DNA of 63,845 nucleotides, filler included, from Pseudovirgaria hyperparasitica (GCA_010093815.1; 10 parts of 8 records of this genome joined end to end with filler, not necessarily neighbours in it); one strand, 5' to 3'. Shown: positions 14,675 through 60,155, counted from the first letter of the whole stretch. Program-made: numbers and translations. The notes: generated by a model from the letters alone, not told the origin.

Positions 14675-14705
14675 TTATTAGTTAAGGGCTACCCTTAACT
14701 AATAA
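14675..14705. repeat. Palindrome copy 1 (TTATTAGTTAAGGG-CTA-CCCTTAACTAATAA), immediately before the LINE ORF1 ATG
   Basis: 14-bp perfect arms, seen directly. Confidence 0.9.
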
Positions 14706-14707
14706 TT

Positions 14708-16189
14708 ATGGCGGCCTTAGGCACCGACGTACCCCGGCTTCCACCGGGTATACCCCTAACACTAGTACGGTAGAAACGGCTATATAGCGGTATATCCTAG
14801 GACGATTAAACCCCCGTCTAATAAATAACGAATAACTAAGGGCGTATAACGCTATAGATAATAGAGATAGAGGGGACCCTACCCGGGGAGACCCTCCCGG
14901 ATAAGATTAACTACTAGGTAGCACGTGTAGAGAGGGAAGTTAAGAAGGGAGAAACGGCCCTCCTTAGTATCTTCCGGAACCTCGTCCGGAATATTAGAGA
15001 GCTTACCGTAGGAGTAAAATAGGCGCCGGAATTAGACCCGGAATCTAGACTAGATCGTATAGAGGCTAGCCTATAGAGGATCTAGGAGGGCCTCGCCTAG
15101 AGAAAACGCCCTAGTATATAGGCATAGGTCGCCGCACCTATAAGCGGAATAGCCATATTAGCTAAAACACCAAGGGCACCTATAGATAGGGCATGTAGTA
15201 TACGAGTCGCTATCTAGGATAAAGAAGTACTTATATAAGTCTAGTAAGCGTCCCTAAAGGATATTATAAATAAGATTAACGAATAGAAAGAGATATAGTT
15301 AAATATAGTGGCTGCTAAACTCACCCTAGGAGATATAGTACTAACTACTACTACTAATACGGCCTAGTAGACTATCTCGCGTAACCCGAACGCAATTAAT
15401 GATATCTTTCCTAGCGCGTCCGTCCGTGTAACCACGTACCTAATATAGATATATACTATCCCCGTCCGAGGATACGTTATCGGAGAAGATAATATCGAGC
15501 GAATAGAGTAATCTAATAAACCGAAGTACCCCGGGATTAAGATCGCGAAGGCGTGGTAGAAGAACGTCTAAGGGATTAAGATAAAATTAAAAAAGCACTC
15601 TACTATAATAGTAGAGCTTAGGGACCCCGCTCTCGCCTATAGGATAACGTAGGAGGGCTTCCTAGCTAAAGGAGAGCTACTCACGGCGGAACCATAGAAT
15701 AGGGCATAGGTAATAACGTAATACTTTAACTATTAGGGATATAGGTATACTAGGTAGAGGTGCTCTTAGAAGACCGCCTATAGGTGGTATAAATAGGGCC
15801 ATAATACTAAGGAATACCCTTATAAGACGTAGAGCGACGAGACGCGAGATAGGGACACCGCTAAGTACTCTAACTATGACGGGAAATATCTATTCTAGTC
15901 GGTAACGTATACGAAACGTAAGTAGGTCGTAGAATATATTAACGCGATAAAGATAAGAGGAGCAAGGTAGATATACTAAGCTATAAGGCCCTCGCTACCC
16001 TCGCCGCCATCCCTAACTTTACTTATGAATCTAGTAACCACCCCCCGAAGGGGAGAGGATAACGCGTAATAGTATACTATATAGAGAAAGATAGGCCGAC
16101 CCCGGGGTATACTTAAAGCCGCTACCGCGCGAGGATAATCACGCCTTAGCGCTACTAATATATAGACTCGAACTTTCCCTAGCACCTAA
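14708..16189 (+). pseudogene. LINE ORF1 (gag-like, three CCHC zinc knuckles)
   Basis: ATG at 14708. De-RIP motifs CFNCQGYGHTGxRC, CxWCKQGHNTKEC and CSNCDGKHxxWSxxC at ~15720-15910. In-frame TAA at 16187-16189. Confidence 0.8.
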
Positions 16190-19100
16190 TAAGGGTATAA
16201 GATATACTTATTATTATATAGGCAAACGTATAATATAAATGAGAAAACTAAGCGACGCTCCTAGAAGAGATAGAAGCCGTAATAATAGCTATCTAGGAAC
16301 TATATAAATACTACTAAACTAATAAGCTAATAATACACCTAGGATACTATACCATCCACCCTACGGACCCGGATAGGAGAGTCATGTTTTATATATATAA
16401 GTCGATCCCGCTCTTAGAATAGTCTTATACCGAACGTAATGACCTCCGGATAACGCTACATCTCTAGATAAGTATAGGGCCTATCTATATCTATAATATC
16501 TATAATTAATAGCGATCGCTTACGCTAGATAATATACTAGAGGGCACTATAACGCCGGGATAATATATCCTCCTAGGCGACTTTAATCTCTACCATAGGT
16601 GGTAGGGAGGCCTAGCCGTCGCGAGAGAAGAACTTAGAGTAAGGGAACTATATATACGGTGCCACGACTTCCTATACCTCCTTATACCTATGGGGTAGAT
16701 TACCTAGAGGAAATATAAATAGGATAAGGACGGGTCTACGCTCGACCTTACCCTCGCTACTAAGTATATTAGCTATAGAGTATAGTACTACCGCCCGAGC
16801 CGGATATAGACGGACTCCGACCACGAATGTATGGAAACTATAATAGACGTCTCCACTCTTAACAAATAACGTAGGAAATGGCTATAGAAGGACACCGATT
16901 AGGATAAATACCTAGAGGACCTAGAATCGGCGATTCTAGACCTCTCTATAGTCGACGTATCTAACGGCCTAGCTATAGATAAGGCCGTGTAAGTCCTCCT
17001 TTAAGCATACTAAGTTACGAGAGATAAACACGTGCTATACTAAACGTATAGACCCCTAGAAGCGAGGGGTATACCTTAAATACGAGAGTATAGAAGAGAC
17101 GCCCGTAGACTATATACACGTGTATACTATATCCGGACGACTAAGGCGTGGGAAGAGTAGAAGGAAGTAGTACGATATCGTGATAGGGCTCTCCGTAATG
17201 AACGACGAAAGTAATAGTATATAATTACTAATAAATATACACGGTAAGCCGTAGGGCTATGGCGTATAGTAAAGTAGGCTAAGGGTGTAGACGCGCCGAT
17301 ACCGCCGCTACTAATGCCTCCCCTAATATACTAAGAGAGGACATACTCTATAAGCCCGGAGAAGATAGAGATCTTACGTGAAGTTATATTCCCCCTCCCG
17401 GAGCTAGTAGACCTATTAGATATTAATAATACTAAATACCTAGACGTAATTAATATCCCCTAAGAGGTTACCGAGGAGGATATACTTAACGCTATTAAAG
17501 TACTCCCGAATAATAAGGTACCCGGACTAGATAGGATACTAAATAGGTGCCTTAAACGTACTATACTAGCTACCCTACCGCTTATTAGTTATATATTTTA
17601 AGTATGTATTAAGAACGGATACCACCCCTAAAGCTTCCGGGCTACCTATACCGTTATACTCCCGAAACTAGGGAAGAACTCTAACTCCCCGAAAGGATAG
17701 AGGCTAATCGCCCTTCTCTCCTATCTCGGGAAGATACTAGAGGCTATAATCGTGAAGAAGATAAGCGCCGTAGTATAGGAATATAACCTCCTCCTAGTAA
17801 ACCAGAAGGCGAAGGCTAGAAGCTCCCTAATTACTACTATCTAATATATCCTCGAAGTCGTCTAGGCCGTATAGAAGTAGGGACGTATAGTAACGCTACT
17901 CTCCCTCGATATGGCCGGCGTATTTAATAAAGTAAACTATATAAGACTTATCTATAACTTATAGAAGAGGCGTATACCCGCGTGGATTACGCGGTTTATA
18001 TAGTCCTTCCTCGCTAAAAGAGTTACCTAGATATATATCCCCGGATATCGAAGTAAGTACGAGAAGACAGCTTACGGTATCCCATAAGGAAGTACTATCT
18101 CCCCGATCCTATTCCTCTTCTTTACTATAGACCTTCTCTAGGGAATATAATGTATAGAGGTAGTAGGGTACGTAGATAATATATACCTTCTAGCTATCGA
18201 TAATAATACTAGCTAAATATATAGATAACTCGAATAAGACCACGGGAGATGCGTCTAATGGGCAAAGCGCTATGGAGTAAAGTTCGCCCCCGAAAAGTAC
18301 TAACTTATATACTTTATTAACCGCCGTAGGAAATAGACTACTAGGGAAGGCGAGCGACGCTCTAGAATAGACGCCTTCGACGAACCGCCGATATAAAGTA
18401 TACGCGCACTCGGCGTTATAATCGATAATAAGCTTAAATAGAGACTATAGGTAGCATACGCCGTTTCTAGGGCCCTCTAGATAGAAGCCGCTATACGACG
18501 GATTACAGCCTCTATATAGAGAACCGCCTAGGATAAGGCACGCTAACTATATATATCTATAGCACGACCCGCCTTCATGTACGGACACGAGTACTAGTAT
18601 ACGGCCCTTATATAGACTAGGCGAATGAAGCTTAAATCTATATAGAACCGTATACTCCGTCTTATATTAGGCGTATATAAAGCTACTAACACGGTACTAC
18701 TACGACGCGAGATAGACGTTATAAGTATATATAACTTCTACTAGATATAGAGGGTGGTATACTTTACTAAATAATAAGTATAGGAACGTGTAGAAAAAGT
18801 AGAATATACCTTCGCCGTGCTACGCGCGTAAGTTAGCGTATACTACTAAGTACTCTTATATATAGGCCGGACTTAACTATGGTATAAGTACCTAATAGAA
18901 ATAGACTCGAACTAAGTAGTATAAGAGATTAAGGATAACCTAGATACCCTTCTAGACTAATAGAGTCTTTAAGAGCTCGGACGAAGTATACGGTCGTGGA
19001 TCTAAGATAAGTAGAAAGAGACACTCCGGGCCTAGTAGGCCTCCTAGTAGGATAGGTACCTAGAGTAGATCCGAGGACTATAGAAGGAGCTAAGTAAATA

Positions 19101-19512
19101 GATATATAAAGGGCTTATAAAGGCCTAGGTATCTATACTCCTCTAAGCCCGAACGGGCGCTATAGGACTTCTATACTACCTCTATAAGAGAGGCGTCCCT
19201 AATATATCTCTATAGTATAAGGCGTGCGGCCGGAGAGGTATAATACGCTACTATCTTATAATATACCCCGATCTTCATACGTAAAGGTAGAAGCTTATCT
19301 ATATAATAAGAACCTCTAATATCGTATAATAGCTTAATAAGTACCCTAAGGACGTCGCCCGGTAGATAATTATATATCTACTACTCCTCTAATTCTAGTA
19401 GACCCGGAAATATATGCCGGAAGAGACCCGGTACACGCTAGTAGTAACCCGATATATACCGGAAGAACCCCGGGAGAACCCCGATTATTAGTTAAGGGCA
19501 GCCCTTAACTAA
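16189..19512 (+). pseudogene. LINE ORF2 (APE endonuclease, RT, C-terminal Cys/His motif)
   Basis: One frame throughout: AI*EL, LGDFNLYH (16573), DSDH (~16813), PGLDRI, GIP*GSTISPILF (~18076), GYVDN (18166), CG...H...CP trace (~19215-19270). The start overlaps the ORF1 stop (TAAT[G>A]). The end is inferred. Confidence 0.85.
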
Positions 19513-19515
19513 TAA
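19485..19515. repeat. Palindrome copy 2, at the end of LINE ORF2
   Basis: TTATTAGTTAAGGGC-A-GCCCTTAACTAATAA, 15-bp perfect arms. Confidence 0.9.
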
Positions 19516-22192: not shown

Positions 22193-22292
22193 NNNNNNNN
22201 NNNNNNNNNNNNNNNNNNNNNNNNNNNNNNNNNNNNTTAATTAATTAANNNNNNNNNNNNNNNNNNNNNNNNNNNNNNNNNNNNNNNNNNNN

Positions 22293-25681: not shown

Positions 25682-27300
25682 ATAATAATCCTTTTTAGTA
25701 TACTATAGACCTTAATAATCTCGTTCTAGAATACCTACGCTAGTTCTTTAGATATAATCATCTTCTATACCGGGATATACCTAGATATCTTTATAAGTCT
25801 ATCCACGATAATAAGAATAGAATTATAACTTATTCTAAGTATCTCGCTTAGAGATAAGTTAACTATAAAGTCTATAGTAACGTCTTCCTATATAAAGAGG
25901 GGAGCTAAAAGAGGCTATAAATTCCTATATAGCTTATACCTAGGGGCCTTCGTTCTTTAATGAATCGGATAAGTAGCTATCTATTCTTTAATATACTTAG
26001 GTATATCTTCCTAAAAATAGTACTAACGAATTAAGCTTAGGGTACATATATACCTAAAGTATTCTACTAGGTTAGCGTTATAGTATCGGCTAACTATATT
26101 AAATCGTGTATTACCTATTAGTATATAGTACTTTCTATTATAGTAAAGTAAGCCGTCTACGAAGGTCTACTTATAGTCTACTTTAGTCCGTAATAACCTA
26201 TCTTACTATATTTTATATAACTTTAAAACTATTAGGTCTATCTTCTATAGATCTATAATTAACTAGGCGAGGTTAATTAGATATTTATGCTAGGTATTAT
26301 CGCCCTTCCCAATAGCGCTAATAAATAGTCTACTAAGGACTTCGGTACCGCGTCTTTAGTTACCGGCTTCGGTCTTAGAGATTTAATTACTGGTATTAAC
26401 GTTAGTATCTCGCTAATCGCCTAATAACTTAAAATCTAACCTTATCCTTAAGAGTTAGGCCTATAGCTACTCTAGGACTCTATAGCTACTATAATTCTAG
26501 GCGCCTTCTTTATAGTTAGGTCTTCTTAATATTCTATTAGCTAGGTTTATACTTCTAGATCGATAGTAGATTATAAAGTAAAAGTTTATAAGCTACTTAG
26601 CCTATTAGATCTATTAATAGTTTAAAACCATTATACTTATAAACCCCTTTAAGTTATAGTAATTAGTTAGTAACTTAATATTATATATAGTACCTTTAAG
26701 ATAATATCGCTACTATTTAAATAACTCTACTATTACTAGTAGCTCTTAGTTATAGATAGTATATCTAGTCTTAATATTAACTATTGTGGTGAGCTATCGC
26801 CACGTGTGTCCCTTAAGTAAATGGCTGTGTTCCTAGTATAGTAGTCGCGACGAACTCACAAGCATCTCTCCCAGGTATTATAAGTTCTCTTTGAACGTAC
26901 GACTTCTTATTAGTTCTCTTTTACGATAGGACGGGTCTATATAATACTCTTAATCAATTCTTCAATAGCTAAGCCTAATAATCAATACCCATAGAGGCCT
27001 ATGAACGTAAGAAAAGGTCGAATAGTCGAATATTAGTAATGGGGGAAGCGTGTGGAGCAGAATGACCGAGGAAAACGCCCTCCTTAAATATATAATAAGC
27101 CATATAATCGAGCTAGGGACACATATATATAGGGCTGCAGGAGCGGCCTTCTACATATACCTCCCCGGCCTATAGAACTACTACCCTTAGTAGTGTAGTA
27201 ACCGTATAAGAAACCGTATGAAGAACGCCCAAAAGAAAGACCTTAATATAAATAAAATGCGCCCCTAGTAAACCCCTCGGCGCGGGTAAACCTTAGCCCG

Positions 27301-27335
27301 GATTATTAGTTAAGGGCAGCCCTTAACTAATAATC
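27301..27335. repeat. Palindrome copy 3, at the end of family C ORF3
   Basis: GATTATTAGTTAAGGGC-A-GCCCTTAACTAATAATC, 17-bp perfect arms. Confidence 0.92.
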
Positions 27336-30287
27336 AGGCAGGTTTTTAGGCGCCTAATCTTAGTACTTAAGGTCGCGAGCTAGCTCCTAAAGAATCATGT
27401 CGCTTATCTTAGAGAGGTTAGATTCCTCCTCGTCGGATAGTTCATTAGGCCTCTTCTATCCGTAGAAGTTCTCTTCGACGTTATCTAGGCCCGCGTCGGG
27501 CTCGAATTTCTTAAAATTAATTAGCCGCTTAGTAGCGCGCGCCTCGTTAAATTCCTTCTAGAACGACCTATCCCTATAGACCAGCCTTTCCTACCTTACT
27601 ATTTTCTTAAAGGTCTCCACGAATACCCTCGAGCCCTCCTTAAACTAGGCGTCTACCTTAGCTTTAAGTTATTAAGGACTTGCGTTAAGCCACGTAGCTG
27701 CCTCTTCTTTCACCTCCTAGCTGTCCTATCTTTTACAGCCGACTAATACGTTACTAACGGCGTTAAAACTCGGGAGTTAAACTGCGACTAGGAAGGCAAA
27801 AGGAATCGCGCTATATTTATTAGAAAATCCTAACGGAGACGTAGGTCCCGGAGTTAAATTCCTATAAGCTGCTACGAGTTATTCCTATGTACCTATTTTA
27901 GGCACTTCTATTATCATGTAATTAGGGCCAATCGCGATATACCATAGAAGTATCATGCGTCTTCCACCCTTTACGGGACCCTAGGTGCCGTGCATTATTA
28001 GTAGGCTAGAGATACGTACTTTAAGGGACTAGTAGGGGACCGGGACGAAGGGACTAAATCGTTTCCTATCGTCCGTATTATAGATCTTATCGTTAATAGC
28101 CGTAATTATACCGTTTTGATTAACCCCCTCGCGGAGCTTAGCCTTCGACTACTATTCGTTTAAGAACTTATAGGAGCGGGGAACGATTATAGTATAGTCG
28201 TCACTTCGTTCGTCGTCGAGACTAATACTCCCCTAGATTATATTAAACCCGTATCTATCGCTGGGATCGAGGATTCGATTAATGGCGTTATCGAGATGCT
28301 TAAAACCCGTCTTATCGCCCCTATCCTAGGACTTCGCATAGTACGGGTACGAGATTAGATAGTAGTTAAGATCGGGCCGAAGAGCGATATAGGTGAGCTA
28401 GTAAAGTGGGCATTACCTAATAAACTATTAGATATAGGAGTGGTATATAGTTCGTAGCCAGCCGTAGTTCGATTTCTTATTAAATATGCGCTGGTAGTAC
28501 TTGTATATATTAAATTCATCCCTCGCGAGTTCTAGGATACTCTTATTAAGTATAGAGGTCGTCTTTTTAAGTGGCTCGAAGAGCCCTTTAATATTAATAC
28601 TTCCGGTACGTTCCCACTCGTCGAAGAGTTACCTACCTATTCTACCGTCCTCCTTCTAAATTACAAATGCGATACTAGTAAGGATGGTTTTAATATTAAT
28701 AACTTGCTTCGGGGTCTCTAGGGCCTAGTAATAATAGACACCTAATATCTCTATCGGATAAGGTGGCCGCGCGTACTTCGCGAACCAGGTATAGCGGTCC
28801 TTATAAACTTTAAGGGCCCCCACGTTATCTCTAAACTTATATACTATTTTAAGTCTCGCTACTAGGTTTAAGTAGGACACGCTAACGAGCATATTATTCT
28901 TTCTAGCCACGTCTTAGTAATACTTATAGTAGACTTTATACGGAACAGCCATGTTACCTATCTACGCTTTCTAGCGTACTAGTAGGGCTATTCCCTTAAT
29001 GCTCGTGAAATTCTTCTTTAATAATGTAGCTACCTTAAAAGTCTTCGTCACTAAAGGCGCGTATCGACACTTCTTAGGCTCGTCCTCTTCCTTAACTAAT
29101 GCTATCGTCTTAGGGTACGAACTAAGAACAACCGGGGATTGCCGTATAGGCGCCCCTGGTAATTACTAAGGGCCGGTAGATGAGGCACGCCCGCGAGTGG
29201 GTTTTATTAGCGTGGCTATAACGGGCACTAAAGACGTTCTTACATGGCCTAGTAAGGGACGTTTACTAGTGGTAGTGGGAGGAATACTTACTTTAAACGG
29301 ACGACTAGCTTCGAAGAGACGACGTGCTACTAAACTAGAAGGCGTACTTCGTGGAGGGGACTTTACCGCGGGCGTTACCTACGCTGGTTTTAGCGACGGT
29401 AAGGTCTAAGGCGGAGGCAATGCACTCATCTCTTTGATTTATAGGTAGTGTTCGACGGGCCTATAAACCATTCTACTTATCCGTGACTATTAACTAGCGG
29501 GGATAATAAGTCCCGTCTTATTATAGAACGTTAGTTTATTTTATTAGCTAGGGTAGTTTAAGAGTTACTAGAGAGATAGGCCGTCCTCGTTACTATCGCT
29601 AGCTAGGGCGGCATTAATATTAGAGCTCTAAAGATATGCCTTAATTCCCCTTCCCTTCTATCCCTGGCCGATTCGGGACTATAGGGATACGTTTAACTAG
29701 TTCCTCGCTCTCGCCCATGTTCGCACTCGTAAGAGCGCTACTAGCTTTTCCATGAAGTTCTATGTTTACTAGAGCTATCCGAGGGCGGATTAGAGTAACT
29801 AGCCGTCGTTATTAGGGAGGTCTTTTCGCTAGTTTTATAGGATTATATTTTTAGCTTTTAGGATACGGGAGTTAGTATCTCTTCCACGACGAATTATCTC
29901 GTGGACTTCTTTCGGAATAGAGGAGTTAATCTTTGCCTTACTATACCCTATTACGGCTTCTACTTCCTGGAAGAGGTCGACTATACTACTTAAGAGCTAT
30001 TCTACGAGGCTAGTGATGTGAAGGAGATTATTAAACATGTCTAGAATATAGTCCCATCGCTCTTACGGGTCCTGGATAGCGATAATTCGGTTAATAGTGG
30101 ACTTATTTATTTCTATAGCTTCTATAGTCTATCCGTGCGGAGTAGTAGATGGCCTTAATACCACGATAGCCGTCGATAGCCCTACTTTAGCACTTACGAC
30201 TCTTAACTAGGACCGCGTCTATCTTATTAGTGCTTAACGATCTTATAACTCTTTATAGGTAGGCGTTTTCTTCTTCGGCGGGGCTAT
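27306..30287 (-). pseudogene. Family C ORF3, ~990 codons, with a C-terminal PhyH-like 2OG-Fe(II) dioxygenase domain
   Basis: Frame conserved from a putative RIP-mutated start (M)APPKKKTPTYK (30287), through GWLRTIYHS, LISYPYYAK, TGFKHLD (HLD 28290-28298), I*GSISLDDERSDDYTIIVPRSYK and MHGT (H 27990-27992), to GRRMILLWY. Confidence 0.75.
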
Positions 30288-33200
30288 TATTATTATTAGT
30301 TCTATCGGCGAGTTACGTTCTAAGAAGAGGTGGTTTAAGCGAGGCGGAAGTAGAGGAGGAGGTTTTATTAATTAAGGAGGTATAGAGAGGTGTAAGAGGG
30401 AAGAGTTATATACTATCTTAAGTTCTCTTTTTATGCCTCCTCGAATACCGGGTATATGGTAATTTTTATAAATGATTCTTACTAACGGCCGTAGGCCCGT
30501 ATACGTGTCGAATCTATGAATGAATATATACTAGGTATATAGGAAATCTATGAATGAATGTATCTACCGGGTATATGGCGGAATCTATAAATGAATAGAT
30601 ACCGGGTATATTCTTATCCCCATGAGACTTCCTATAAGTATCTTTTTCTCTTATACCTCCTCCTTCTTTTCTTCCTTATTAGTTCCTAATGGGGCCCGTT
30701 CTATAGTAACGAAATAGGCCTTCGATGGGTAGGCTTCGATTATACGACCGGTTTTAATATATGGTAGGTAGAATTTCGTGTAAATGCCATTATGTCTTCT
30801 TTCGAGCATTACTTACTTTAATAATGGGTTTTATTATTTTATAGTAATAATAGGGTTTATTATCCTCTTTCGATGATAGAGTTTATCGTCATGAGACTAC
30901 TTTTATAAGTATCCCTTCCCTCCTTAAAAAAACTTCTGTCCCCTAGAAGGAGATATCGATTCTAGGGAAACGTAAATATTCCTCTCTATTGAAGTCTTAT
31001 AGAGTAGGAATCACTACTTCTACCCGGGTTCGTGTGGCGTCGTCGAGGTGTTCCGTAAGTTATTTATAATAGTTTTTCTTATCGCTACTCTCCTTATTTT
31101 CCTCGGTAATTCTTCTGATTGGTGGTCGTAAGGGCTCGTCGTGACTCTCGTTACTTATATTTCTCATGAAATATTTCTTTAACCTGTGGCTAGGAAACGT
31201 CCCTCTAAGCATGGCTCTATTAAGCTCCGCGAGCTTATAAGTGTAATTAAACACGGACTAGATTCTATATGGCCCCCTCTAATGCTACCTTAGCTTTCGC
31301 CCTATATCCTTCTATCGCTACGAGTCGTATAGAAGGATAATCGTATCGACTAGTAACGACTCTTAACGAAGGTAATGGTCGTTATTCCATGCCTCTCTTA
31401 ATTCCTTACGCGTTCGTGTCGCGTGGGCATGGGCCTCCTTAAGATCCTCGGATCTTCTCTTAAGTTATCTAGCTCGAAGAGCGAGTAAGTCGGACGTTAA
31501 TCGCACCTCGTTCTAAGGGAGCATTCGGAGCGACTCGAATTTAACTTTAATAGGTATGATTAGTTTATAGCCGAGCACGAGGTATACGGTATTATACCCT
31601 ATACTAGCACGTGTCGTTATTCTATCTACCTAGACGACCGTATAGAGGTGGTCGGGCTAGTTCTTGAATCCGCCATTAGTCATCTTCGCGAGAGTATTAG
31701 CGAGTAGTATAAAACTTCTCTTAATAATCCTATTTACTCGGGGATTATACATAGATATAACCTTCTAATAAATTCTATAGAGTCGGAGGAGCTCCTCTAT
31801 GGCATCTATATTTTCTCTACCACCGTTATAGGTGATTTTAGGAATGATTCTATATCTATAGATCACGTTCTTAAAGAGGAACTTTGCGACGACTATGGAC
31901 GTGGCCACCGTATATGCCTCCGCCTTAGTCCATCCGCTTAGCTATTCTTATATAGATACTACTTTACTATACCCCATGGAAGGTAGTAGTGCCGTTACGT
32001 CTAAGTATATTCTTTACCAAAGAACAGGCGTTATAATATAGTAGAGCCCTTTATTAAGACCTCCGAGGAGCTTACTTCGTCATTAATATTTATTATAGGT
32101 TTTCACGTGCTATCGCACGTCTCTACGTATACCTACCTACTAATACTTATCCTTAATCCTTCCGAGGGTCCCTTTGCTACCTCTATAATCTATCTCGTCG
32201 TGAGTAGTAGTAATTATACGCGCCCTAGTATTCGGATCCTTAATTACTCGTGTATATTAGCGATACCTATCTCCTCTCCGCTAGAGTATTTAGTCACGCA
32301 TAAGGAACTTTAGGTAGTCGGTTATAAAGGCCTTATACGCTCGGTCGGTTAGGTTAGTTAGCCTCTTAAGTATAGTAAGATACTTCGTAATCCTCTACTA
32401 TTTATCGCTATATTCATCTATTAAGGGAGACTTAATGGCGGTATAGTCGAGTGTCTCTATCGTGTAATCTCTCCTACTAACGGGCTTAATTAACGACGTC
32501 TCTAGCACGTCTATATATAGAGCTATATCCACGAACTCGTCTAGGTTAAAGGTAGGAACGTCTAGTGGTTCTTCTCCTTCGTATATCCGTGAGATACTAT
32601 TAGCGACTACGTTGCGCTTTCTAGGTATATACCTAACTATGAAGTTCTATATCTAAATCCACGCGAGCCACCTAGTAACGAGCGCCCCTAGTAAGTTAGT
32701 TACGGTGTGGTTAATTTAAGCGACTAGAGTATTCGCGTCTATTTCTATAATAAAGTGCGTGCTATAGAGGTATTACTAGAACTTCTATAACGCGTGGAGG
32801 AGGGCTCGGTACTCTAGCTTCATGGTGTCGTAGTTTCTCTTAGCTTTTAACTATATTCCTCTATTATACCGCGATAGCTAACGTTTATAATTCTCGTTCT
32901 CCTATATTAACGTAGCTCCCTATCTAACGTTACTAGAGTCTACTACTAGAATTATATCTTCCATACCTGTCCCGTACTATAACGTTATTAGTACGGGAGT
33001 AGTAGTTAGAGCTATCTTTAGCGCGTCTATCGAGGTCTACTCCTTGGCTATCTACTACTAGGCCGATTTATTCTTTAATAGTATAAATAGCGGCGATGCG
33101 ATAACAGCGTACCCGGGGATCTATATCCGGAAATATATATAAACGCCAAGGAAGGCTCGCACATTCATCGTGTTTTTATAGGGTTTCTAGTCCCTAATAG

Positions 33201-34575
33201 TAGTAACCTTTTTATTACTCGGTCGCCTCCCTTTAATATCGCAGACGTATCCTATAACGTTAGCGGCTTTAACACACCACTAAGTCTTCTTACTACTTAG
33301 GGCGTATCCAGCGCGCTCTATATCCGCGAGAACCTTATCCACGTTAATTAAATGTTCTAGGATATACCTACGAATTCTAGGCAGGGCCTCCTTAGAGTTA
33401 TATTTCGTCGTAGGTCCTTTAATGCCTAAGTCATCTAGAAATAGTAGAGCCCTCTCCGGGATGTATTCTTATATAATAGTTAATATAATCCTAACGAACT
33501 AAGCTACTAAATTAGTGGCCCCTTAAGGTAATATTATCCTATATAGTAATCCTAGGGGCGTTATAAACCCCGTTAAGTCTTGGTAATACTCTACTAATGG
33601 AATCTAATCGTATCCTAAGAAGAAGTCGGTAAATGTTAAGACGGCTATCCCCGTGAAGTACTCTAAGAACTCTTTATACGAGGGCGGCGTGGCCGCATTA
33701 TGAATAGTAACTCGGTTGATTTCTATCACCGAATTAATTAACCTATGATCTCGTTCCTTATTAGCTTCCTTCTTCTTTTCCACGAGAAAATAGGCGTTTC
33801 GATAAGGACTACTATAGGGCTCGAGCCTTCTACTATTAAGACGCTCTTTTAGGATCGTGAGTACCTTCCTATAAAGGGCTCTAGGAATGTTAAAGTTCTT
33901 AGCCTACTATATCTTATGTTCTACCGTTCGGATCTCCTACGGAGGTACCACCTCCTCGTTAAATTTACTAAGGTATAAGAATTTCTATGCTAGTACTTCC
34001 TCGCGATATAATAAGATTATATATAGTAACTTGAGTTCCGCGGGACGTAGCTCTATTCTAATCTTTAGCTAACTTATACGTAGAGGCGTTAGACGTGTTC
34101 CTAGCGGGATAGTTACCCTTCGAGGCTCTATTAGCCTATTAAACGCGTTAAGGCCTAGGTGGACGGCTGGAAGAAGTGCCTGCTATGCGATTGCTCGTTC
34201 ACGCTAGTCTAGATACCCTAATAGATTCCTAGGAACCTTTCGGTGGGCTTCGGAGTTATCCACGGGGTGTACTTTAACTCCCTTTCTTTTATATATGGTG
34301 GCTATACTAAATCCCTTTAATACCCCGGATGAATACCGTCTTTAGAGGCCGGTGGAGCCTACTATAAGCCGTTCTATTATCATGCCCTATTTATATACGA
34401 AGGCAGCGTACCTTGCCGCCGTAACTAGGGCGGCTAAGTCATCTTTTCTCGATAACCGAGTAACATTTTTAGGCCGGATTTTCTCGGAAAGTAACTCTAT
34501 ATAACTCATTTCTATATCTATATAAAAATATAGTCTATCCCCTTCGTTAGTGGGTTTACCGGACTCTATTTAGTG

Positions 34576-34614
34576 CGGATTATTAGTTAAGGGTAGCCCT
34601 TAACTAATAATCCG
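34576..34614. repeat. Palindrome copy 4, inside family C pol between protease and RT
   Basis: CGGATTATTAGTTAAGGG-TAG-CCCTTAACTAATAATCCG, 18-bp arms. Confidence 0.92.
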
Positions 34615-37294
34615 GCTCAACTCCGGCTTCCGGCGACATGCTCTACTATATAGTTAGTCTCTAGCCACGGAGTTACCCTTCTTCTCTAAGACTAGAATAT
34701 ACTCGTCCGGGCTGGTTTCAAAGGTTATACGTTCTTATCTATATACGGAGTAGACTATTAAGAGTACTTACCCGGAGGCTAACCTCTACACCGTAAGTAA
34801 GGCCTATCTAGCATATGGCTCCCCTAGGATAAGGTTATAATTAAGTTCGCTATACACGAATATCGAAGTAGCCGTAACGATCCGACCTATACGGATAGGG
34901 TATTACTATACTATTCCTACGAATAGAGTACTATACTAAGTAGCGCTAACTAAACTCGAGTTCTTTATATATGGTAGAAGCGAAGATATCGCTAGCCCGA
35001 GACGCCTCGTAGTATCTAGTCGAATACTATTTACCTATGCGCCACTATCGAATAGTACTATACTAGTCGCCCTTTTAGGACTAACTTCTACGGGGTACCT
35101 CGGATACTCGGCCACTAGCCTTACTATCCCTTCCTTAAGCTAATTAATATCTTATTACGTAATAGCCGTCCCCGTGGCATAGAGGGGTACTAATATATTA
35201 AGTTTATTTATCTCGGGAGCCATAGTATAGTCGTTTCTTCCTTTCTTCTCGGCTCTCTCTTCTCGAGCCTTACGGACCTCTCTAGCTATAAAGTCGGGGG
35301 CGCCCTTCTCAAATACCGCGCGACGTAAGTCGCTATTAAGGCTTAATAGTTCGCTAATAGTAATATTTATGGTTGTCCCTAGAACGCGCACTAGCCATGC
35401 TTCGCTAGCTTCTATACTTAGCCGCTATCCTTCGCGTAGATAGTTATTAAGCTTAACGCCTTAGATACGTGCCTTTTAACTAGGATTTAGGCCATCCCCT
35501 TTATCTATCTTATCCTCCGGCGCTATTAGCTCTTATTTAGACGTTCCCTAGTCGCTACTCTTCTCGCCGTCCTCCTATTCCTCGATAATCCTTATATACT
35601 ACCCTTCACGCATTCCGCGGAGACGGGCGATCTTTCTTTCCTTAGTATGATTAGGTGTACTCTTCGTGATCCCCCTTCTAGATATTATAAGTATAGCGGG
35701 CTCTTCTAGGGCCATCTCCTCGTGGATATATCTATTACTAGCCACGTTAAAGCGTTCGTGGAATTCTATATATCTATCTTTCTTACTCTCGGGCGACGTG
35801 ACTTCTTCTTCCGAATTACTATCCGCCGAGGCCTGGTAGAGACCCTTCGTAGGTTTTATACTAATACTATATACCAGCACTCCCTATGAAGCGTTAATGT
35901 TTACTATAGACGTGGAAACCTTCACTCCTCCTCCGTACTAGCTTAGGCCGTTTTAAACCGTTACTACGTAGTTCCGGATAGCTTATAGAGTAGCTTATAG
36001 CCCTACTAAGGAGGGTAGTAATAGGATTTCTTCTCTATTCGCCCTAAAACGCCCTCGGAATACTCACACCCCGTTAATATTTAGTAATCCGTCTCTAATA
36101 TATCCTACTATCTCCGGACATCTATATATTAGGTAATCTTCTCCGTACGTGATGCATACGATCGGTCTTCAAGGCCTATCCTAGGCTATAACACCTTCTT
36201 AGGAGTCTCGGGTAGAGACGTATTCTCTATTCTATATATAATTCTATGGATAAACTTGCGTTAGTTCTATAGGTATGCCTCGTGCTTAGGGATGTGCTAA
36301 AAGATTTAGCCTTCGCGCCTACTAGTTAATAATAGCCGAAAGTAGCTTAGGTTCGTACTTCTTAAGGGATAGGAATAAGGGATTAGAGGTAAAGTAGGAC
36401 TTTATCTTAATTAACGTGAGGTCTAGTTTACTAAATCTTTCTACTATCTCGTTAAACTTATCCAATCCTAGCGTGACGTGTACTACGACTAGAGAGGGGT
36501 GGTTAAATTCATTAGTTCTTCTTTCTTCATATAACTACTCTTCTAAGCCGGTCTTCTTACTCCCTATCTTTAATTTATAGTATATGGCTATGGCTAGCTC
36601 TTGTGCGGCTAAGTGCTTATTAATACGAGCTAGTTCCTTAAGTGCTCTAGCCTTTCGTGATACGAAGCTATAGATAATTACCTAGTCGTAACTATATGCT
36701 TCTATCGTAAGTTAACATTTCTCTATAGCCCGAGCCTTAAGACTATTAGGTAGCCCTTCTAGGAAGAGCTCTATTCGCGAATACGAGCTTAGGCTTCCTT
36801 TAGCCGTAAGTTTCTCCGTAATAACATGATACCGGGAGTAGTATATGGGGAGAGAGTAGGATGGGTCTACTTTAACCATTTCCACGTATTTTCGGATAAA
36901 GTAGATGGTGCCTTCCTCGAGGGTAGAGTTAAATAGAGAGAATTCCTTTAATAATTCTTCACGTAGCGTGGCCCACTACTATTTCTAAAACCCACTTATT
37001 CCTTTAATAGTAGGACGGAGATGGTCCTCGTAGTATGACGGTAGGGAGGTTATCTTCTTATTAGGCGGAACTTCGTAGTTTATATACATGTCCTCGTACT
37101 TCCGAAGGAAGGCCGTGATGTTTATTCCTTTAAAGCGCTCGGGGGCTAGGGTAGGTAGAGGTACTATCCTTCCTTATCGCGTAAATACTACGAAGAAGTC
37201 AAGCATCTCTCTATGAGTTACTAGGTCGTTGTTTTAAGCTCCTATCGTACTATTACTAGTAGTAGGTGTGCTAGTAGAGACGCTGGGGGTAAGG

Positions 37295-37322
37295 TTATTA
37301 GTTAAGGGATTACCTTAACTAA
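37295..37322. repeat. Palindrome copy 5 (degenerate), inside family C gag
   Basis: TTATTAGTTAAGG-GATTA-CCTTAACTAA. Confidence 0.75.
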
Positions 37323-37805
37323 AGGTTGGCCCAATGCGCCTACCTATAACACCTATCATCCCTTCTCTATGTTAACTAATCCCTTTATAAGGTGAACTAT
37401 TACTATCGTCTTCATTAATATAAGGTTCACGGTACTCTACTTATATTATTATCTTCGTGTGAGGCGTTCCTAAAGTGGTATACTCGTGTGGCCGTATTTA
37501 TGAATGACAGCTATAGTAGCACTAAACAGGTTATATTTGTCGTTTTTGAACTCTTCTTTACTACTTCATCTAGCCCTGTTTTATATTCTATTCCCCTAAG
37601 ACATTTTCGAGTCGCGCTATCACCCGTATTAGTATGCGCATGCTTTTTACGGCTTCTTTTAAGAGGCTAGCCCCTAGCGACTCCGGACTCCCTGTTTTCC
37701 GGACTCGTGGCTTTAATCTAGTAAGTCTAGACTACCTTATTAGGCACGCTATATACTTCCCCTAAGCTAGTTTCGGAGTCCTAATCTCCCCCTATAAGTT
37801 CGTAG

Positions 37806-37822
37806 TCCGGGTACGACCTCTA
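37806..37822 (-). promoter_or_regulatory. Family C primer-binding site, tRNA-type (possibly tRNA-Gln)
   Basis: Plus strand TCCGGGTACGACCTC[T]A reads like a tRNA 3' end ...ACC-U-CCA after one RIP reversion. It lies 4 nt inside the 5' LTR. Confidence 0.5.
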
Positions 37823-38909
37823 AAATTATGGTAAGCTATCGCCACGTGTGTCCCTTAAGTAAATAGCTATATTCCTAGTATAGTAGTCACGACGAACTCA
37901 CAAGCATCTCTCCCAGGTATTATAAGTTCTCTTTAAACGCACGACTTCTTATTAGTTCTCTTTTACGATAGGACGGGTCTATATAATACTCTTAATCAAT
38001 TCTTTAATAGCTAAGCCTAATAATCAATACCCATAGAGGCCCATGAACGTAAGGAAAGGTTAAATAGTCGAATATTAGTGATGGGGGAAGCGTGTGGAGC
38101 AGAATGACCGAGGAAAACGCCCTCCTTAAATATACAATGAGCCATGTAATCGAGCTAGGGACACATACATGTAGGGCTGTAGGAGCGGCCTTCCACACTA
38201 TTTTACGTAAGAAGAACGTAACTAGATACTATTAGACCTTTTTAGACTTAGTTAGTCTAGGCTAGAAGAGAATATCTAAGATTATAAATTCTAACGCGTC
38301 GGTTTTAATACGGATAGATTTAGTCGGGTTAAAGTATACTAGTAATAGGGTAGTTATAAATACCTCTTTGATTTTCTTAAAGGAGGCCCTTTCGCCTTCT
38401 AATAATTCTATAGGCTATAATTTAATATTATACTATTTCTATCTACCGCGGACCGTAATAGACGAATCTATAGTAGTAGTATACGCGTTAAGTAGTGCTA
38501 CTAGCCGGGAGAAATTGTTAGGACGGGAACCATAACGGACCTATATAGACTATTCTAATCCATGTAGCCACGTAGTGGCTAGAGCTAGGTTAAGTTAGCT
38601 AAGTTAAGCGAGGTTACTATATAAGTAGACCGTATAAACCGATTCCTACTCGTTAGGAATTAACCTCGTATAAGAGTAAGATTACTCTATAAATATATTC
38701 CTATATCTCTCTATGAACTATTAGACTACTATCCTATATCTTTACTCTTTATATTTTAATTCCTCTCTATATAGCACGACGGTAGCTTATAGAGATAGCT
38801 CCTACTACGCGCTATAATACCCATAGTACTACCTTATACGAGAGACTCTCTCTAAATCTAAACGAAGAGAATAGTCTCTCTATAACCACCTCTACTAATA
38901 AGTATACCC

Positions 38910-50335: not shown

Positions 50336-50435
50336 NNNNNNNNNNNNNNNNNNNNNNNNNNNNNNNNNNNNNNNNNNNNTTAATTAATTAANNNNNNNNN
50401 NNNNNNNNNNNNNNNNNNNNNNNNNNNNNNNNNNN

Positions 50436-54400: not shown

Positions 54401-56771
54401 TATAAAATTATCTAAATATAAGTTTCACTAATAAGAAGTTAGGTTTCTTGGCTTTATTATAACATATAGCGGCCTAAAAATAGAGCCGGAGCGTGTAAAG
54501 ACTATCATAGAATGGCTAGAACCTACTACTATATATTAAATTAGAATATTTATAGGTTTCGTAAACTATTATCGTAAATTTATTATAGGCTTCTTACGAA
54601 TTACGGCGCCGCTTAATAAACTCATAGAGAATGGCGGTAAAATCCCTATAGGTAGGCGAGTATAGCGTAAAGCTAAGTCGGTTAAGATATAGTTAACGCC
54701 GGAAGCGCGAGATGCGTTCTAATCATTAAAGAATTACTTTATAACTACGCCGATTCTTAGGTATTTTAATCCTAAGAAGCATATTCGGGTCGAAACTAAC
54801 GCGTTAGGATTCATAATTACTAGAATTATTAGTTAACCGTATAAAGATATAAAAGACAAGGTGTAATAGCACCTGGTCGCTTACTTTTCCCGTAAAATGG
54901 CGGATATAGAGACGTGTTATGACACGCACGACTAGGAACTACTTATAATCGTTAAGAGTTTTAAGTAATGGCGATATTATTTAGAAGGCTCTATATATTA
55001 GATCGAATTATTATTAGATCACGCAAATCTACGTTACTTTATGTTAACTAAGGTCCTTAATCGCCGATAAGTACGTTAGGCTAAGTGGATGTTAATATTT
55101 AACTTTAAAATCTTATATAAAGCTAGAAGAGAGAATAAAGCTAATCCTCTATCGCGGCGTGAAGATTATAAGAAATCGTTATAGAANNNNNNNNNNNNNN
55201 NNNNNNNNNNNNNNNNNNNNNNNNNNNNNNTTAATTAATTAANNNNNNNNNNNNNNNNNNNNNNNNNNNNNNNNNNNNNNNNNNNNGGTATTAAGTAATC
55301 TAAATAAACGTCTAAGAAACTAAGAAAACCCTTAAAGACTTAATTAAATCTACCTAGAATTCCGATATATTAGTAAAGAAAGTTATAAGTATAAAAGGAA
55401 GCGCTATAGATCCGCCGTGGTTATTAAGGTAGGAATAATAATTAGACGCGATCTACTTCTAAGGCCGACTCTACGTACTAGAAGGCGGCTTATAAATTAA
55501 TGTTTTAAGGGAATAGTACGATTACGCGTTAGTAGAGTACTTTAGCGTTATAAGGACGGTTAATTTAATCCGAAGGACGTGTGACTAGCCGGGTCTTTAT
55601 AAATATATAAAAGACTACGTAAAAAAGTATAACGTTTACTAGTATATAAAAGTATATAGATACTTACTATATAGCGAATTAAGGCTATTACCTATACTAA
55701 AGGAAGTATAGAAGGAATTATTAATGGATTTTATTATAGATCTACCCCTAAGTAAGTATTCTAGGTATATTTATAATAGTTTACTCGTAGTTCTAGATAG
55801 ATTTATAAAGATATTATACTATATCCCTATAAGGAAGACGATCTAAGTACCGGATCTTATAGATATACTACTCTATAACGTAGTCCGGCTCTATAGTATA
55901 CTAAACGGTATAGTTTTAGATAGAGGTCTATAGATAATATCTAAATTTTAGAAGGATTTCTACTATACGCTAGGAATTAAGCGGAAATTTAGTACTATGT
56001 TCTATCTATAAATAGATAGATAGATAGAGCGGTAGAATTAGATAGTCGAGGCGTATTTACGCGTATATTATAACTATAAGTAGAATAACTAGGTAAGGTT
56101 AGTCTATATCGCGGAATTCGCGTATAATAATAGCCGATATATATTAACCTATGTAAGTCCGTTTAAAGTAAACTTTAGTTAGAACTATAATATATAGTTC
56201 TTAGAGACTTAGTTTAAAGTAGAATAACCTAATATTAAAGTAATAGAAATTACTATAGAACTATTCTAAACGTAAAGAAGCGTTATAAAGTTACTATAAG
56301 ATACTATGAATTATAGTAAATCGCACTATAATAAGGGTAGAAAACCTATGATCTTTAATATTAGGGATAAAGTTTTACTAAATAGTAAGAATATTCGTAG
56401 TATTAGACTAAAGAAGAAGCTTAACTATACGATAATAGATCTATATAAGATTATTTATATAATTAATAACCAGGTATACGAGTTATAACTCCCTCCTACG
56501 TTAAAGATATATAATATATTCTATATTATACTTCTCGAGCTATTTTATGCCTTATTATTACCGGATCGTTCCGAATAGATACTATATAAAGTAGTTATAT
56601 AAGAAGGTATAGATATCTATAAAGTTAAGTAGATACTTAGCTAGTAACGCGCCGAAGATGGCACGTAGCTATATAAAATTCGTTAGAAAGGATATAATCC
56701 TAACGAAGATACTTAGGAACCTATAATAAACATTAGTAAAGTAGCGATATTAGTATATAAGTAGTAATTAG
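51475..56771 (+). mobile_element. Family A chromovirus: 5' LTR (51475-51702), gag (~51880-53148), pol to chromodomain; contains gaps
   Basis: Knuckle CYKCxExxHISPNC (~53086), slippery AAAAAAG (53137-53143) before the gag stop, ALVDTS protease in the -1 frame (53286), [25 protein letters not shown] (54306), RNase H, integrase and chromodomain (~56618-56725). Confidence 0.92.
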
Positions 56772-56871
56772 NNNNNNNNNNNNNNNNNNNNNNNNNNNNN
56801 NNNNNNNNNNNNNNNTTAATTAATTAANNNNNNNNNNNNNNNNNNNNNNNNNNNNNNNNNNNNNNNNNNNN

Positions 56872-59800
56872 TCCTTCATATTACTAGCCTCATAGAATAG
56901 CTCTTAAGTAGTATAGTTAACCTCTTCTAGGAAGTAGAAGCCATAATAGAATATAGTAAGGTAAAGATTAACTCCTCTATTCCGAAAGAAGTCTACGAGA
57001 TAATTCGTTATAGAAGAGATACTAACTCCCGCATCCTAAAAGCCAAAAATATAATCCTATAAAACTAGCGAAAAGACCTCCCTAATAACGACGGCTAGTT
57101 ACTCTAATCCGCCCTCGGACAGCTCTAGTAAATATAGAACTTTATAGAAAAGCTAGTAGCGCTCTTATGAATACGGACATAGGCGAGAGCGAGGAACTAG
57201 TTAAACATATCTCTATAGTCCCGAATCGGCTAGGGATAGAAGGGAAGGGGAATTAAGGTATATCTTTAGAGCTCTAATATTAATGCCGCTCTAGCTAGCG
57301 ATAGTAACGAGGACGGTCTATCTCTCTAGTAACTCTCGAACTACCCTAGCCGATAAAATAAACTAACGTTCTATAATAAGACGGGACTTATTATCCCCGC
57401 TAGTTAATAGTTACAGATAAGTAGAATGGTTTATAGGCCCGTCGAACACTACCTATAAATTAAAGAGATGAGTATATCGCCTCCGCCTTAGACCTTACCG
57501 TCGCTAAAACTAGCGTAGGTAACGCCCGCGGTAAAGTCCCCTCTACGAAGCACGCCTTCTAGTTTAGTAGTATATTATCTCTTTAAAGCTAGTCGTCCGT
57601 TTAAAGTAAGTATTCCTTCTACTACTACTAGTATACGTCCCTTACCGGGCCATGCGAGAACCTCTTTAGTGCCCGTTATAGCTACGCCGATAAAACCTAC
57701 TTATGGACGTGCCTTATCTACCGGCCCTTAGTAATTACTAGGGGCGCCTACACGATAATCCCCGGTTATTCTTAGTTCGTACTCTAAGACGATAGTATCG
57801 GTCGAGGAAGAGGACGAGCCTAAGAAGTGTCGATGCGCGCCTTTAGTAACGAAGACTTTTAAGGTAGCTATATTATTAAAGAAGAATTTCACGAGCATTA
57901 AGGGAATGGCCCTACTAGTATGCTAGAAAACGTAGATAGGTAATATGGCTGTTCCGTATAAAGTCTACTATAAGCATTACTAAGACGTGGCTAGAAAGAA
58001 TAATATACTCGTTAGCGTGTCCTACTTAAACCTAGTAGCGAGACTTAAAATAGTATATAAGTTTAGAGATAACGTGGGGGCCCTTAAAGTTTATAAGGAC
58101 CGCTATACCTAGTTCGCGAAGTACGCGCGGCCACCTCATCCGATAGAGGCATTAGGTATCTATCGTTACTAGGCCCTAGAGACCCTAAAGTAAGTTATTA
58201 ATATTAAAACCATTCTTACTAGCATTATATTTGTGATTTAGAAGGAGGATAGTAGGATAGGTAGGTAACTCTTCGACGAGTAGGAACGTACCGGAAGTGT
58301 TAATATTAAAGGGCTCTTTGAGCCACTTAAAAAGACGACCTCTATACTTAATAAGAGTATTCTAGAACTCGCGAGGGATGAATTTAATATGTATAAGTAC
58401 CACTAGCGTATATTTAATAAGAAATTAAACTACGGCTGGCTACGAACTATATACCACTCCTACATCTAATAGTTTATTAGGTAATACCTACTTTACTAGC
58501 TCACCTATATCGCTCTTCGGCCCGATCTTAACCACTATCTAATCTCGTACCCGTACTATGCGAAGTCCTAGGATAGGGGCGATAAGACGGGTTTTAAGTA
58601 TCTCGATAACGCTATTAATTGAATTCTCGATCCTAGCGATAGACACGGGTTTAATATAATCTAGGGGAGTATTAGTCTCGACGACGAACGAAGTAACGAC
58701 TATACTATAATCGTTCCCCGCTTCTATAAGTTCTTAAATAAATAGTAGTTGAAGGCTAAGCTCCGCGAGGGGGTTAATTAAAACGGTATAATTACGGCTA
58801 TTAACGATAAGATCTATAATACGGACGATAAGAAACGATTTAGTCCCTTTGTCCCGGTCCCCTACTAGTCCCTTAAAGTGCGTATCTCTAGCCCACTAAT
58901 AATACACGGCGCCTAGGGTCCCGTAAAGGGTGGAAGACGTATAATGCTTCTATAGTATATCGCGATTGGCCCTAATTACATGATAATAGAAGTGCCTGAA
59001 ATAGGTATATAGGAATAACTCGCAGTAGCTTATAGGAATTTAACTCCGGGACCCACGTCTCCGTTAGGATTTTCTAATAAATATAGCGCGATTCCTTTTG
59101 CCTTCCTAGCCGTAGTTTAACTCCCGAGTTTTAACGCCGTTAGTAACGTATTAGTCGGCCGTAAAAGATAGGATAGCTAGAAGGTGAAAGAAGAAGCAGC
59201 TACGTGGCTTAACGCAAGTCCTTAATAACTTAAAGCTAAGGTAGACGCCTGGTTTAAGAAGGGCTCGAGGGTATTCGTGGAGACTTTTAAGAAAATAGTA
59301 AGGTAGAATAGGCTGGTCTATAGGGATAGGTTGTTCTAGAAGGAATTTAATAAGGCGCGCGCCGCTAAGCGGCTAATTAATTTTAAGAAATTCGAGTCTA
59401 ACGCGGGCCTAGATAACGTCGAAGAGAACTTCTATAGATAGGAGAGGCCTAACGAACTATCCGATAAGGAGGAATCTAACCTCTCTAAGATAAGCGATAC
59501 GATTCTTTAGGAGCTGGCTCGCGACCTCGAGTACTAAGATTAGGCGCCTAAAAACCTACCTAATTATTAGTTAAGGGCTGCCCTTAACTAATAATCCGGG
59601 CTAAGGTTTACCCGCGCCGAGAGGTTTACTAGGGGCGCATTTTATTCGTATTAAGGTCTTTCTTTTAGGCGTTCTTCACACGGTTTCTCACACGGTTACT
59701 ATACTACTAAGAGTAGTAGTTCTATGGGCCGGGGAGGTATATATAGAAGGCCGCTCCTGCAGCCCCACATGTATATATCCCTAGCTCGATTATATGGCTT

Positions 59801-60113: not shown

Positions 60114-60155
60114 GTATTATAAAGCTAGTACTATTATTATTCTTTAGTTTATTAA
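60114..60155 (+). mobile_element. Fragment of the family D relic (target of the second family C copy)
   Basis: GTATTATAAAGCTAGTACTATTATTATTCTTTAGTTTATTAA is identical to 10752-10793. Confidence 0.75.

Follow-up and report, generated by a model that had tools for sequence, protein, structure and literature searches.

Rickettsia palindromic elements are bacterial units, longer than the sequence described here, that are inserted in frame into the open reading frames (ORFs) of several unrelated genes at permissive places. In the stringent type of pairing between a long and a short interspersed nuclear element (LINE and SINE), the two share a 3′ stem-loop through which the non-autonomous partner exploits the machinery of the LINE. 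The subject of this report is a palindrome present six times in a 63,845-nucleotide stretch of DNA from Pseudovirgaria hyperparasitica (GCA_010093815.1; the whole stretch analysed is referred to as the window), together with the corresponding palindromes of metagenomic relatives. All six copies in the window lie within two retroelements, a LINE and a Gypsy-type long terminal repeat (LTR) retrotransposon, family C. Like the Rickettsia elements, the palindrome is a unit of permissive places that occurs in more than one unrelated gene, and in some relatives it is read in frame within ORFs; unlike them it is fungal and shorter, is under strong purifying selection at matching positions, and no insertion signature was found for it. 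It also resembles the LINE/SINE stem-loop in being a short hairpin common to two otherwise unrelated retroelements of one genome. That stem-loop, however, lies at the extreme 3′ end and its partner lacks a reverse transcriptase (RT), whereas here both elements encode an RT and the copies are at five internal positions: the 3′ copy is followed by conserved LINE sequence over at least 68 nt, and family C has an RT, RNase H and integrase of its own.

In the VANDAL elements of Arabidopsis, short lineage-specific motifs, often in tandem and in non-coding parts, are read by the element-encoded VANC, for which Hosaka et al. 2017 (PMC5735166) report experimental evidence of binding and of a loss of methylation. 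As with the targets of VANC, a lineage-specific motif is here repeated along the element, partly in tandem, and differs completely between related transposable elements; the cases differ in that VANDAL is a plant DNA transposon, whereas here the palindromes are long, lie also in coding sequence and are shared with a LINE, and the factor is only putative. Fungal GalEa Copia elements have a Conserved Hairpin Site (CHS) and an 'extended CHS' (Donnart et al. 2017, PMC5445492). In both cases a hairpin with a free loop is conserved above its surroundings in fungal LTR elements, can be shared between families of one species and has no known role. The CHS, however, occurs once per element, immediately behind the 5′ LTR, where it replaces the primer binding site, and has a 9-nt consensus with a fixed A/A mismatch. 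The palindrome is repeated and dispersed, and in family C even the nearest copy is separated from the 5′ LTR by about 500 nt; its sequence also differs, being unlike the CHSeq1/CHSeq2 consensus quoted in PMC5445492. Ty1 PAL1/PAL2, Ty3 PAL6 and the retroviral dimerisation initiation site likewise make the genomic RNA of an LTR element self-complementary at certain places, and their function depends on palindromy, as that of the present palindromes would (PMC6844567, PMC11381356); these are 6-7 nt long and confined to the 5′ end, whereas the palindromes described here are 25-39 nt long, number up to 13 per element, are scattered along the entire element with the LTR included, and have arms that are conserved rather than covarying. 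The literature searched contained no account of Gypsy elements with dispersed palindromes specific to a lineage, nor of a Gypsy element with a PhyH-like ORF.

Results

The palindrome in the LINE and family C

A pattern for the 25-nt core of the palindrome, allowing up to three mismatches, matched the window at six positions (14678, 19488, 27306, 34583, 37298 and 59567) and gave no match in shuffled sequence (n=100). A transition-tolerant 31-mer matched five of these copies with no mismatches and missed the degenerate copy at 37295. In a scan for perfect arms the palindrome sites had arms of 14-18 bp in five cases and of 10 bp at 37298, and no other arms above 12 bp were present in the window; solitary half-sites and additional decayed copies were also sought there and none was found. 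The copies at 27301 and 59563 correspond to each other, family C being present here as two copies of opposite orientation. The coordinates and extents agree with those of the original prediction, which was also correct in describing the register at the two ORF ends as DY(Q)xRAAL(D)-stop and in not seeing the motif in the other elements of the window (A, B and the terminal-repeat retrotransposon in miniature), given that no copy lies outside the LINE and family C. Folding predictions for the copies as RNA gave hairpins with energies between -14 and -29 kcal/mol and z-scores between -2.6 and -7.2, the copy at 14675-14705 having a value of -20.7 kcal/mol. A comparison of the entire window, both strands, with Rfam 15 gave no match at the gathering score, and a metagenome scan with a transition-tolerant 25-mer gave no stretches.

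The contigs that make up the window are strung together by ten linkers of 100 bp, each built as N44-TTAATTAATTAA-N44 (1618-1717, 3692-3791, 14245-14344, 20046-20145, 22193-22292, 50336-50435, 55187-55286, 56772-56871 and 60156-60255 among them), with additional N10 and N15 gaps, and the adjacency of elements across linkers therefore has no meaning. Given this artificial chaining, and that palindromes of 31 nt disrupt the k-mer graphs used in assembly, the shared sequence could be a sequencing or assembly artefact, or the trace of a chimeric exchange or recombination joint between LINE and Gypsy. Four observations speak against this. First, the palindromes are 331-561 bp away from the nearest linker and the copies differ by changes of the type caused by repeat-induced point mutation (RIP). 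Second, the 3′ palindrome copy of the LINE recurs with its flanks in contigs of sequencing run X3, which comes from a different sample and a different study. Third, 58 analogous palindromes were found in 80 metagenomic loci, as described below. Fourth, blastn at word size 7 between the LINE contig and family C recovered the palindrome alone (28-37 nt), everything else having an E value of 0.001 or worse; since the similarity is limited to the palindrome, a simple chimeric exchange is excluded. The two elements are thus otherwise dissimilar, as had been claimed, and the two ways in which the original prediction could have failed, an adapter or assembly artefact and extended homology around the motif, are both answered in its favour. 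This explanation is already largely refuted and is considered extremely improbable.

Each lineage has a palindrome of its own

The proteins nearest to the family C pol (41-43% identity, 1189-1370 residues) start at about copy #2 of the palindrome. Alignment of nine pol proteins led to the retrieval of 80 metagenomic loci, 538 kb in total, in which 58 palindromes of score 10 or more were found, compared with 7, 3 and 3 in three block shuffles. A palindrome is present in the linker between protease and RT (PR|RT) in 12 of 59 loci (p 7e-14) and in that between RNase H and integrase (RH|IN), where the palindromes are located in a hypervariable acidic linker, in 4 of 51 (p 3e-5), against 0 of 615 size-matched control windows in conserved pol. 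In 8 of 33 loci there is one at most 800 nt after pol, and further places are within or after ORF3, the leader and the LTR. The PR|RT landmark alone holds at least eight unrelated palindrome sequences among the relatives. Short cores within the palindromes of L002 (7512-7572, E-box), L014 (5482-5516, E-box), L060 (4959-4984, TGACTCA) and L053 (4386-4405, ACGCGT) are presumably candidates for classical palindromic transcription-factor sites.

Each sub-lineage carries its own palindrome of 25-39 bp, reiterated in 2 to about 13 copies per element. The element L020 has 13 copies, ten of them with an exact 15-nt core: one is in ORF1, two are in ORF2 (at both linker landmarks), two lie just ahead of the ATG of ORF3, six are within ORF3 and one is just past its stop. 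L047 has about 11-12, of which three are in the leader, one is in the PR|RT linker, one is 130 nt before the 3′ LTR and others are after pol and in ORF3; this layout covers all three positions seen in family C. L028 and L002 have four copies each, one of those in L028 lying 19 nt before the gag ATG and two of those in L002 standing in tandem in the LTR, and tandem pairs or triplets occur in L002, L020 and L047. The lineage-specific, repeated and partly tandem arrangement that marks an array of the VANC type is thus seen in L020, L047, L002 and L028.

Palindromes are translated in frame inside intact ORFs in L020, L025 and L028. The in-ORF copies of L020 use two different open registers and never the third, which contains TGA, and the two copies of L025 are in different registers. 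Since the register differs among copies, the constraint is on the nucleotides and not on a peptide; a peptide repeat was ruled out on this ground. Orientation is also free: L037 has two mutually inverted copies with identical internal asymmetry, and an arm asymmetry that is not of the wobble type is retained in all copies of L002.

Several of these features raise the possibility that the palindrome is a selfish miniature insert that entered both elements and rides along where it is harmless, comparable to a miniature inverted-repeat transposable element (MITE) or to a Rickettsia palindromic element, the latter being among the options of the original prediction. Such an insert would account for copies that are found at permissive places only, can point either way and keep the internal asymmetry of the unit, for one word in two unrelated elements whose flanks lack homology, for the L014 palindrome, which lies within a stretch absent from its nearest relatives, and for the end of LINE ORF2, where removal of the 31-mer would leave the frame open for about 13 further codons. 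Placement at permissive sites nevertheless says nothing about function, because any tolerated insert ends there. Moreover, no direct repeat abuts any of the six window copies and no target-site duplication was found next to the more than 40 copies inspected in relatives, contrary to what is expected of a MITE; no empty-site allele reaches 5% among 28,424 (run X1) and 9,424 (run X2) family C contig pieces; and the window has no copy beyond the two families. Counterparts at matching positions were found in L032, which is 86% identical to L047, for 12 of 12 L047 copies examined, and since all 12 are shared no insertion boundary can be read from this pair. Finally, where copies occupy matching positions, 25 of their 26 arm columns show no variation while the flanks decay. 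A tolerated mobile palindrome fits poorly with landmark copies that are constrained more than the RT core, and this explanation is regarded as quite unlikely.

Constraint on the arms

Constraint was assessed on five elements (L017, L019, L023, L025 and L026) with an RT identity of 75-83%. At the PR|RT landmark of these elements, the two 13-nt arms of the palindrome show the invariance given above, compared with 603 of 984 columns in the RT core (Fisher p 1e-4), 14 of 80 in the upstream flank and none of the 10 columns of the centre. The arm-to-arm spacing is 23 nt in nine of nine copies in which both arms were found, LTR copies included. The best reading of this pattern is that selection targets the nucleotide sequence of the arms, and neither the encoded peptide nor mere pairing.

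The last point bears on the possibility that the palindrome is an RNA self-pairing module, with a hairpin or a duplex between copies that serves cyclisation of the RNA between 5′ leader and 3′ end or the linkage of two genomic RNAs for packaging, or that lets the LINE RNA travel with the family C RNA. In agreement with this, the predicted hairpins are stable, every copy is in a transcribed part, family C and L047 have copies in the leader and before the 3′ LTR, the LINE has one at either end of its coding region, and palindromy is always kept between lineages that differ wholly in sequence; there is also a precedent in Ty1 and Ty3, whose RNA dimerises through short palindromes (PMC6844567, PMC11381356). 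However, the deviations from pairing in 582 arm pairs of multi-copy lineages are G.U in 16 cases, A.C in 28 and other in 38. This lack of a G.U bias is not the pattern expected from selection for RNA pairing. Furthermore, non-wobble mismatches are preserved in all copies of an element, and in the clade studied there are no compensatory pair changes, the arms being invariant. Long-range pairing would also face competition from the local hairpins, and dimerisation palindromes known so far have only 6-7 nt and occur nowhere but at the 5′ end. RNA self-pairing is an unlikely account of the palindrome but a serious rival.

RIP and the native form of the word

The window has been subject to heavy RIP, with an index (CpA+TpG)/(ApC+GpT) of 0.21-0.37, and of 603 variant places of family C in the DNA runs X1 and X2 all except five are transitions. 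Within the 31-mer the only CpA/TpG is at the centre, and the centre variants TAG (34583) and CTA (14678) are RIP products of CAG and CTG. The original prediction had assumed that the ancestor was richer in GC and free of stops in one frame, which would require the arms to have been converted by RIP. Two aligned copies of family C have 46 CpA/TpG sites intact in both and 97 mutated in one, giving a per-site rate of about 0.51, and at this rate the chance that 30 of 30 sites (the six arm TpA in five copies) had all been mutated is about 2e-9. In addition, a LINE contig of run X3 retains three CpA and one TpG within 30 nt beside the palindrome and has the identical AT-rich 31-mer; it differs from the family C copy at a single place, outside the 31-mer, and its CAG centre is intact. 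The RIP statistics and this locally un-RIPed contig contradict the GC-richer ancestor and argue that the word is natively AT-rich, with TAA or TAG in every register of both strands. With stops in all six frames the word can survive only at the edges of ORFs, which explains the observed placement.

It had also been claimed that the palindrome is in frame within gag-pol. For the copy at 34576 this is doubtful, given the stops in all frames, although one open variant is conceivable there: the codon at 34602-34600 might have been open in the master copy of family C, the chance of a mutation at both symmetric sites in one copy being about 0.26. If it was not, family C must bypass an in-frame stop, as is reported for the fungal element Tca2, which has an in-frame stop in gag and a bypass whose mechanism is unexplained (PMC2194720).

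These stops raise a further possibility, that the palindrome provides ORF punctuation or translational control, in which a six-frame stop and a hairpin end ORFs, block upstream translation, or, where gag-PR meets pol, help ribosomes to bypass the stop or shift frame. Three of five window positions provide a stop in the frame that is used (TAG in LINE ORF2, TAG in family C ORF3 and TAA at PR|RT), one copy ends 2 nt before an ATG, and gag-PR and pol are in the same frame in family C while most relatives have a -1 overlap; Tca2 would again be a precedent. This scenario is nonetheless very unlikely, and a punctuation role fits only the version found in this genome, for the relatives translate palindromes inside intact ORFs. 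The structures that stimulate frameshifting or read-through follow the slippery site or stop on its 3′ side after only a few nucleotides, and the palindromes of the relatives, at 100 nt or more past the ORF1 stop, are too distant to stimulate frameshifting; in family C the stop is in the 5′ arm, so that a ribosome located there has already opened the stem. A frameshift or read-through stimulator was accordingly rejected (in L020 and L025, 100-145 nt separate the ORF1 stop from the start of the palindrome), and the stops are better explained as the reason why the word sits only at ORF edges. A mimic of the LTR-LTR junction, acting as an integrase site, was tried separately and rejected, the LTR termini of family C being unlike the arms.

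Host elements and relatives

The features of the window and of the intact relatives are collected in Table 1.

Table 1. Palindrome copies, the elements that carry them, and landmarks of related elements. Positions are those of the window or, where a locus is named, of that locus.
Feature	Position	Strand	Remarks
Palindrome, LINE 5′ side	14675..14705	.	Centre CTA; ends 2 nt before ORF1 ATG at 14708-14710
Palindrome, LINE ORF2 end	19485..19515	.	Centre CAG; left arm supplies the stop of the ORF2 frame, TAG 19489-19491
Palindrome, family C copy #3	27301..27335	.	Minus-strand ORF3 ends ...PDY-TAG 27329-27327; ~145 nt upstream of 3′ LTR
Palindrome, family C copy #2	34576..34614	.	39 bp, plus-strand centre TAG; protease-RT linker; in-frame TAA 34602-34600, minus strand
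Palindrome, family C copy #1	37295..37322	.	Degenerate, 10-bp arms; ~500 nt downstream of 5′ LTR, in leader or N-terminal gag
Palindrome, copy #3 of second, inverted partial family C	59563..59595	.	Centre CTG
LINE coding region	14708..19491	+	RIP-degraded; ORF1 with CCHC-like knuckles; ORF2 with endonuclease-like stretch and RVT_1
Family C, LTR/Gypsy	26782..38197	-	gag-PR and RT-RH-IN share a frame; ORF3, with PhyH-like dioxygenase, follows; LTRs ~375 bp
Family C, second partial copy	56872..60116	+	ORF3 end and 3′ LTR; 93% identical to 27097-30025
-1 overlap sites, gag-PR/pol	L009 4653-4680; L013 3497-3515; L014 2999-3011; L020 1390-1405		
ORF3 in relatives	L009 8746-11595; L013 7462-10419; L020 5713-9423		

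The RVT_1 domain of LINE ORF2 was identified with an E value of 2.2e-19, and Exo_endo_phos_2 with 26.8 bits, which is below the Pfam cut-off of 27.4. A fragment of a Copia-type RT (RVT_2, 19753-20026, E 9e-14) is found directly downstream on the same contig, and the LINE therefore appears to be nested in, or next to, a Copia remnant. In family C, copy #1 is about 55 codons ahead of the conserved gag core and copy #2 is 10-20 codons beyond the point at which ORF1 ends in relatives, while its ORF3 (minus strand, about 27330-30800) is homologous to the ORF3 of the metagenomic relatives. Family C is very abundant, the contig pieces of runs X1 and X2 counted above matching 27100-37800 at 80% likeness or more; run X3 has three contigs on family C and run X4 has none. 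The sole stop-free frame of at least 150 codons in the 63.8-kb window is at 45146-45640 on the minus strand and spans an N15 gap.

Intact relatives consist of ORF1 (gag-PR), ORF2 (pol) and an ORF3 of about 990-1240 residues, the range for the lineage being about 950-1240. The junction of gag-PR and pol, a -1 shift overlap in most of them, is absent from L028, in which gag-PR-pol is fused in a single ORF of 2168 codons (1918-8424). In the L028 record, nucleotides 1-167 and 10054-10220 are identical (167 nt) and ORF3 runs across the contig end to the start, indicating that a single element was assembled as a circle or in tandem. ORF3 matches PhyH weakly and shows, in its C-terminal half, a PhyH-like dioxygenase fold over residues ~500-830. 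For the N-terminal half, a search among 5.8 billion proteins returned only its own near-identical relative and a comparison with solved structures gave no match; the Atlas model of ORF3 is of low confidence (pLDDT, the predicted local distance difference test, 0.50). In L032, a 1.1-kb stretch at 14156-15258, about 7-8 kb downstream of pol, contains seven different strong palindromes with arms of 10-17 bp, constructed on one common word. The differences between L047 and L032 are largely C-to-T and G-to-A in L047, some of them within palindromes, where they in places perfect imperfect arms. A second case of sharing was sought in the LINE-like ORFs of L068 and L060, which have no copy of the palindrome of the neighbouring Gypsy element.

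Discussion

Comparison of family C with its relatives identified four features of the palindrome that are informative on its function: strict arms around a free centre of fixed length, independence of register and orientation, identity of the copies within an element, and complete exchange of the sequence from one lineage to the next. All four fit inverted half-sites, paired and reiterated, for a dimeric factor, and this reading is therefore favoured. It is tentatively suggested, on the basis of sequence comparison, that the palindrome is a selected site of this kind, predicted to be recognised by a sequence-specific dimer, and that it was captured by the LINE. The original prediction had listed a binding site for a dimeric host or transposon protein as one of four options; this option now stands ahead of the others, with a factor that is itself putative. 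In the mechanism proposed, the palindrome would be a cis-acting module typical of a Gypsy lineage with gag-PR, pol and a PhyH-like third ORF. Copies would settle where inserts are tolerated, that is in the leader, between protease and RT, between RNase H and integrase, in the spacer between pol and ORF3, in disordered parts of ORF3, before the 3′ LTR and in the LTR. The two arms would be the inverted half-sites through which a putative dimeric nucleic-acid-binding factor, either a host transcription factor or a protein of the element, decorates the element, with a role that may be enhancer-like, anti-silencing, or the tagging of the element's nucleic acid. The occasional copies in LTRs and in tandem give the palindromes the look of an enhancer or of VANC targets.

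The LINE, with two copies of the family C word, would use the same factor. As the palindrome habit is general in the Gypsy clade, the LINE is taken to be the captor, and transfer of the word from Gypsy to LINE is the most likely direction by parsimony.

A number of points weigh against half-sites for a dimeric factor. The factor is putative, and the molecule it would recognise may be DNA or RNA. A long self-pairing stem is also expected to have invariant arms, given that one change breaks pairing, and RNA cyclisation would agree equally with copies placed in the 5′ leader and close to the 3′ end, as well as with those on either side of the LINE. For a transcription factor, binding sites in coding sequence, and as many as 13 in one element, are unusual. 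The palindromes of L047 and L032 are conserved no better than their flanks. A strong palindrome is present at any single landmark in only about one fifth of the relatives and is thus recurrent but not universal; because the loci are mutually related, the counts are not of independent events. Half-sites for a factor also do not account for the way in which a word of 31 nt reaches new sites in either orientation, two of them in a LINE, where no target-site duplication is visible.

A more specific version of recognition by a dimeric factor can be envisaged, in which the Gypsy clade marks itself with a private, lineage-specific address in 2-13 copies. The address would be read by a putative factor encoded by the element, possibly in the N-terminal half of ORF3, that protects or activates only its carriers, and the abundant LINE of this genome, having copied the address of family C twice, would free-ride on the protection of another family. 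This scenario is rather unlikely; if true, retroelements would have their own equivalent of the VANC system, with hijacking across classes of element.

The cis-acting signals of LTR retrotransposons are thought to lie in the LTRs, the leader and the polypurine tract. The Gypsy clade described here holds a long palindrome at many internal positions, genes included, that is kept more strictly than its own RT. The wholesale replacement of the word between lineages would be the signature of a recognition system that coevolves with its reader, or of a device for self-recognition. The copies in this genome have been destroyed by RIP, but intact relatives (L020, L009 and L013) are open to experiment, and the presence of the same word in an unrelated LINE offers a natural test case for the exploitation of one mobile element's signal by another.

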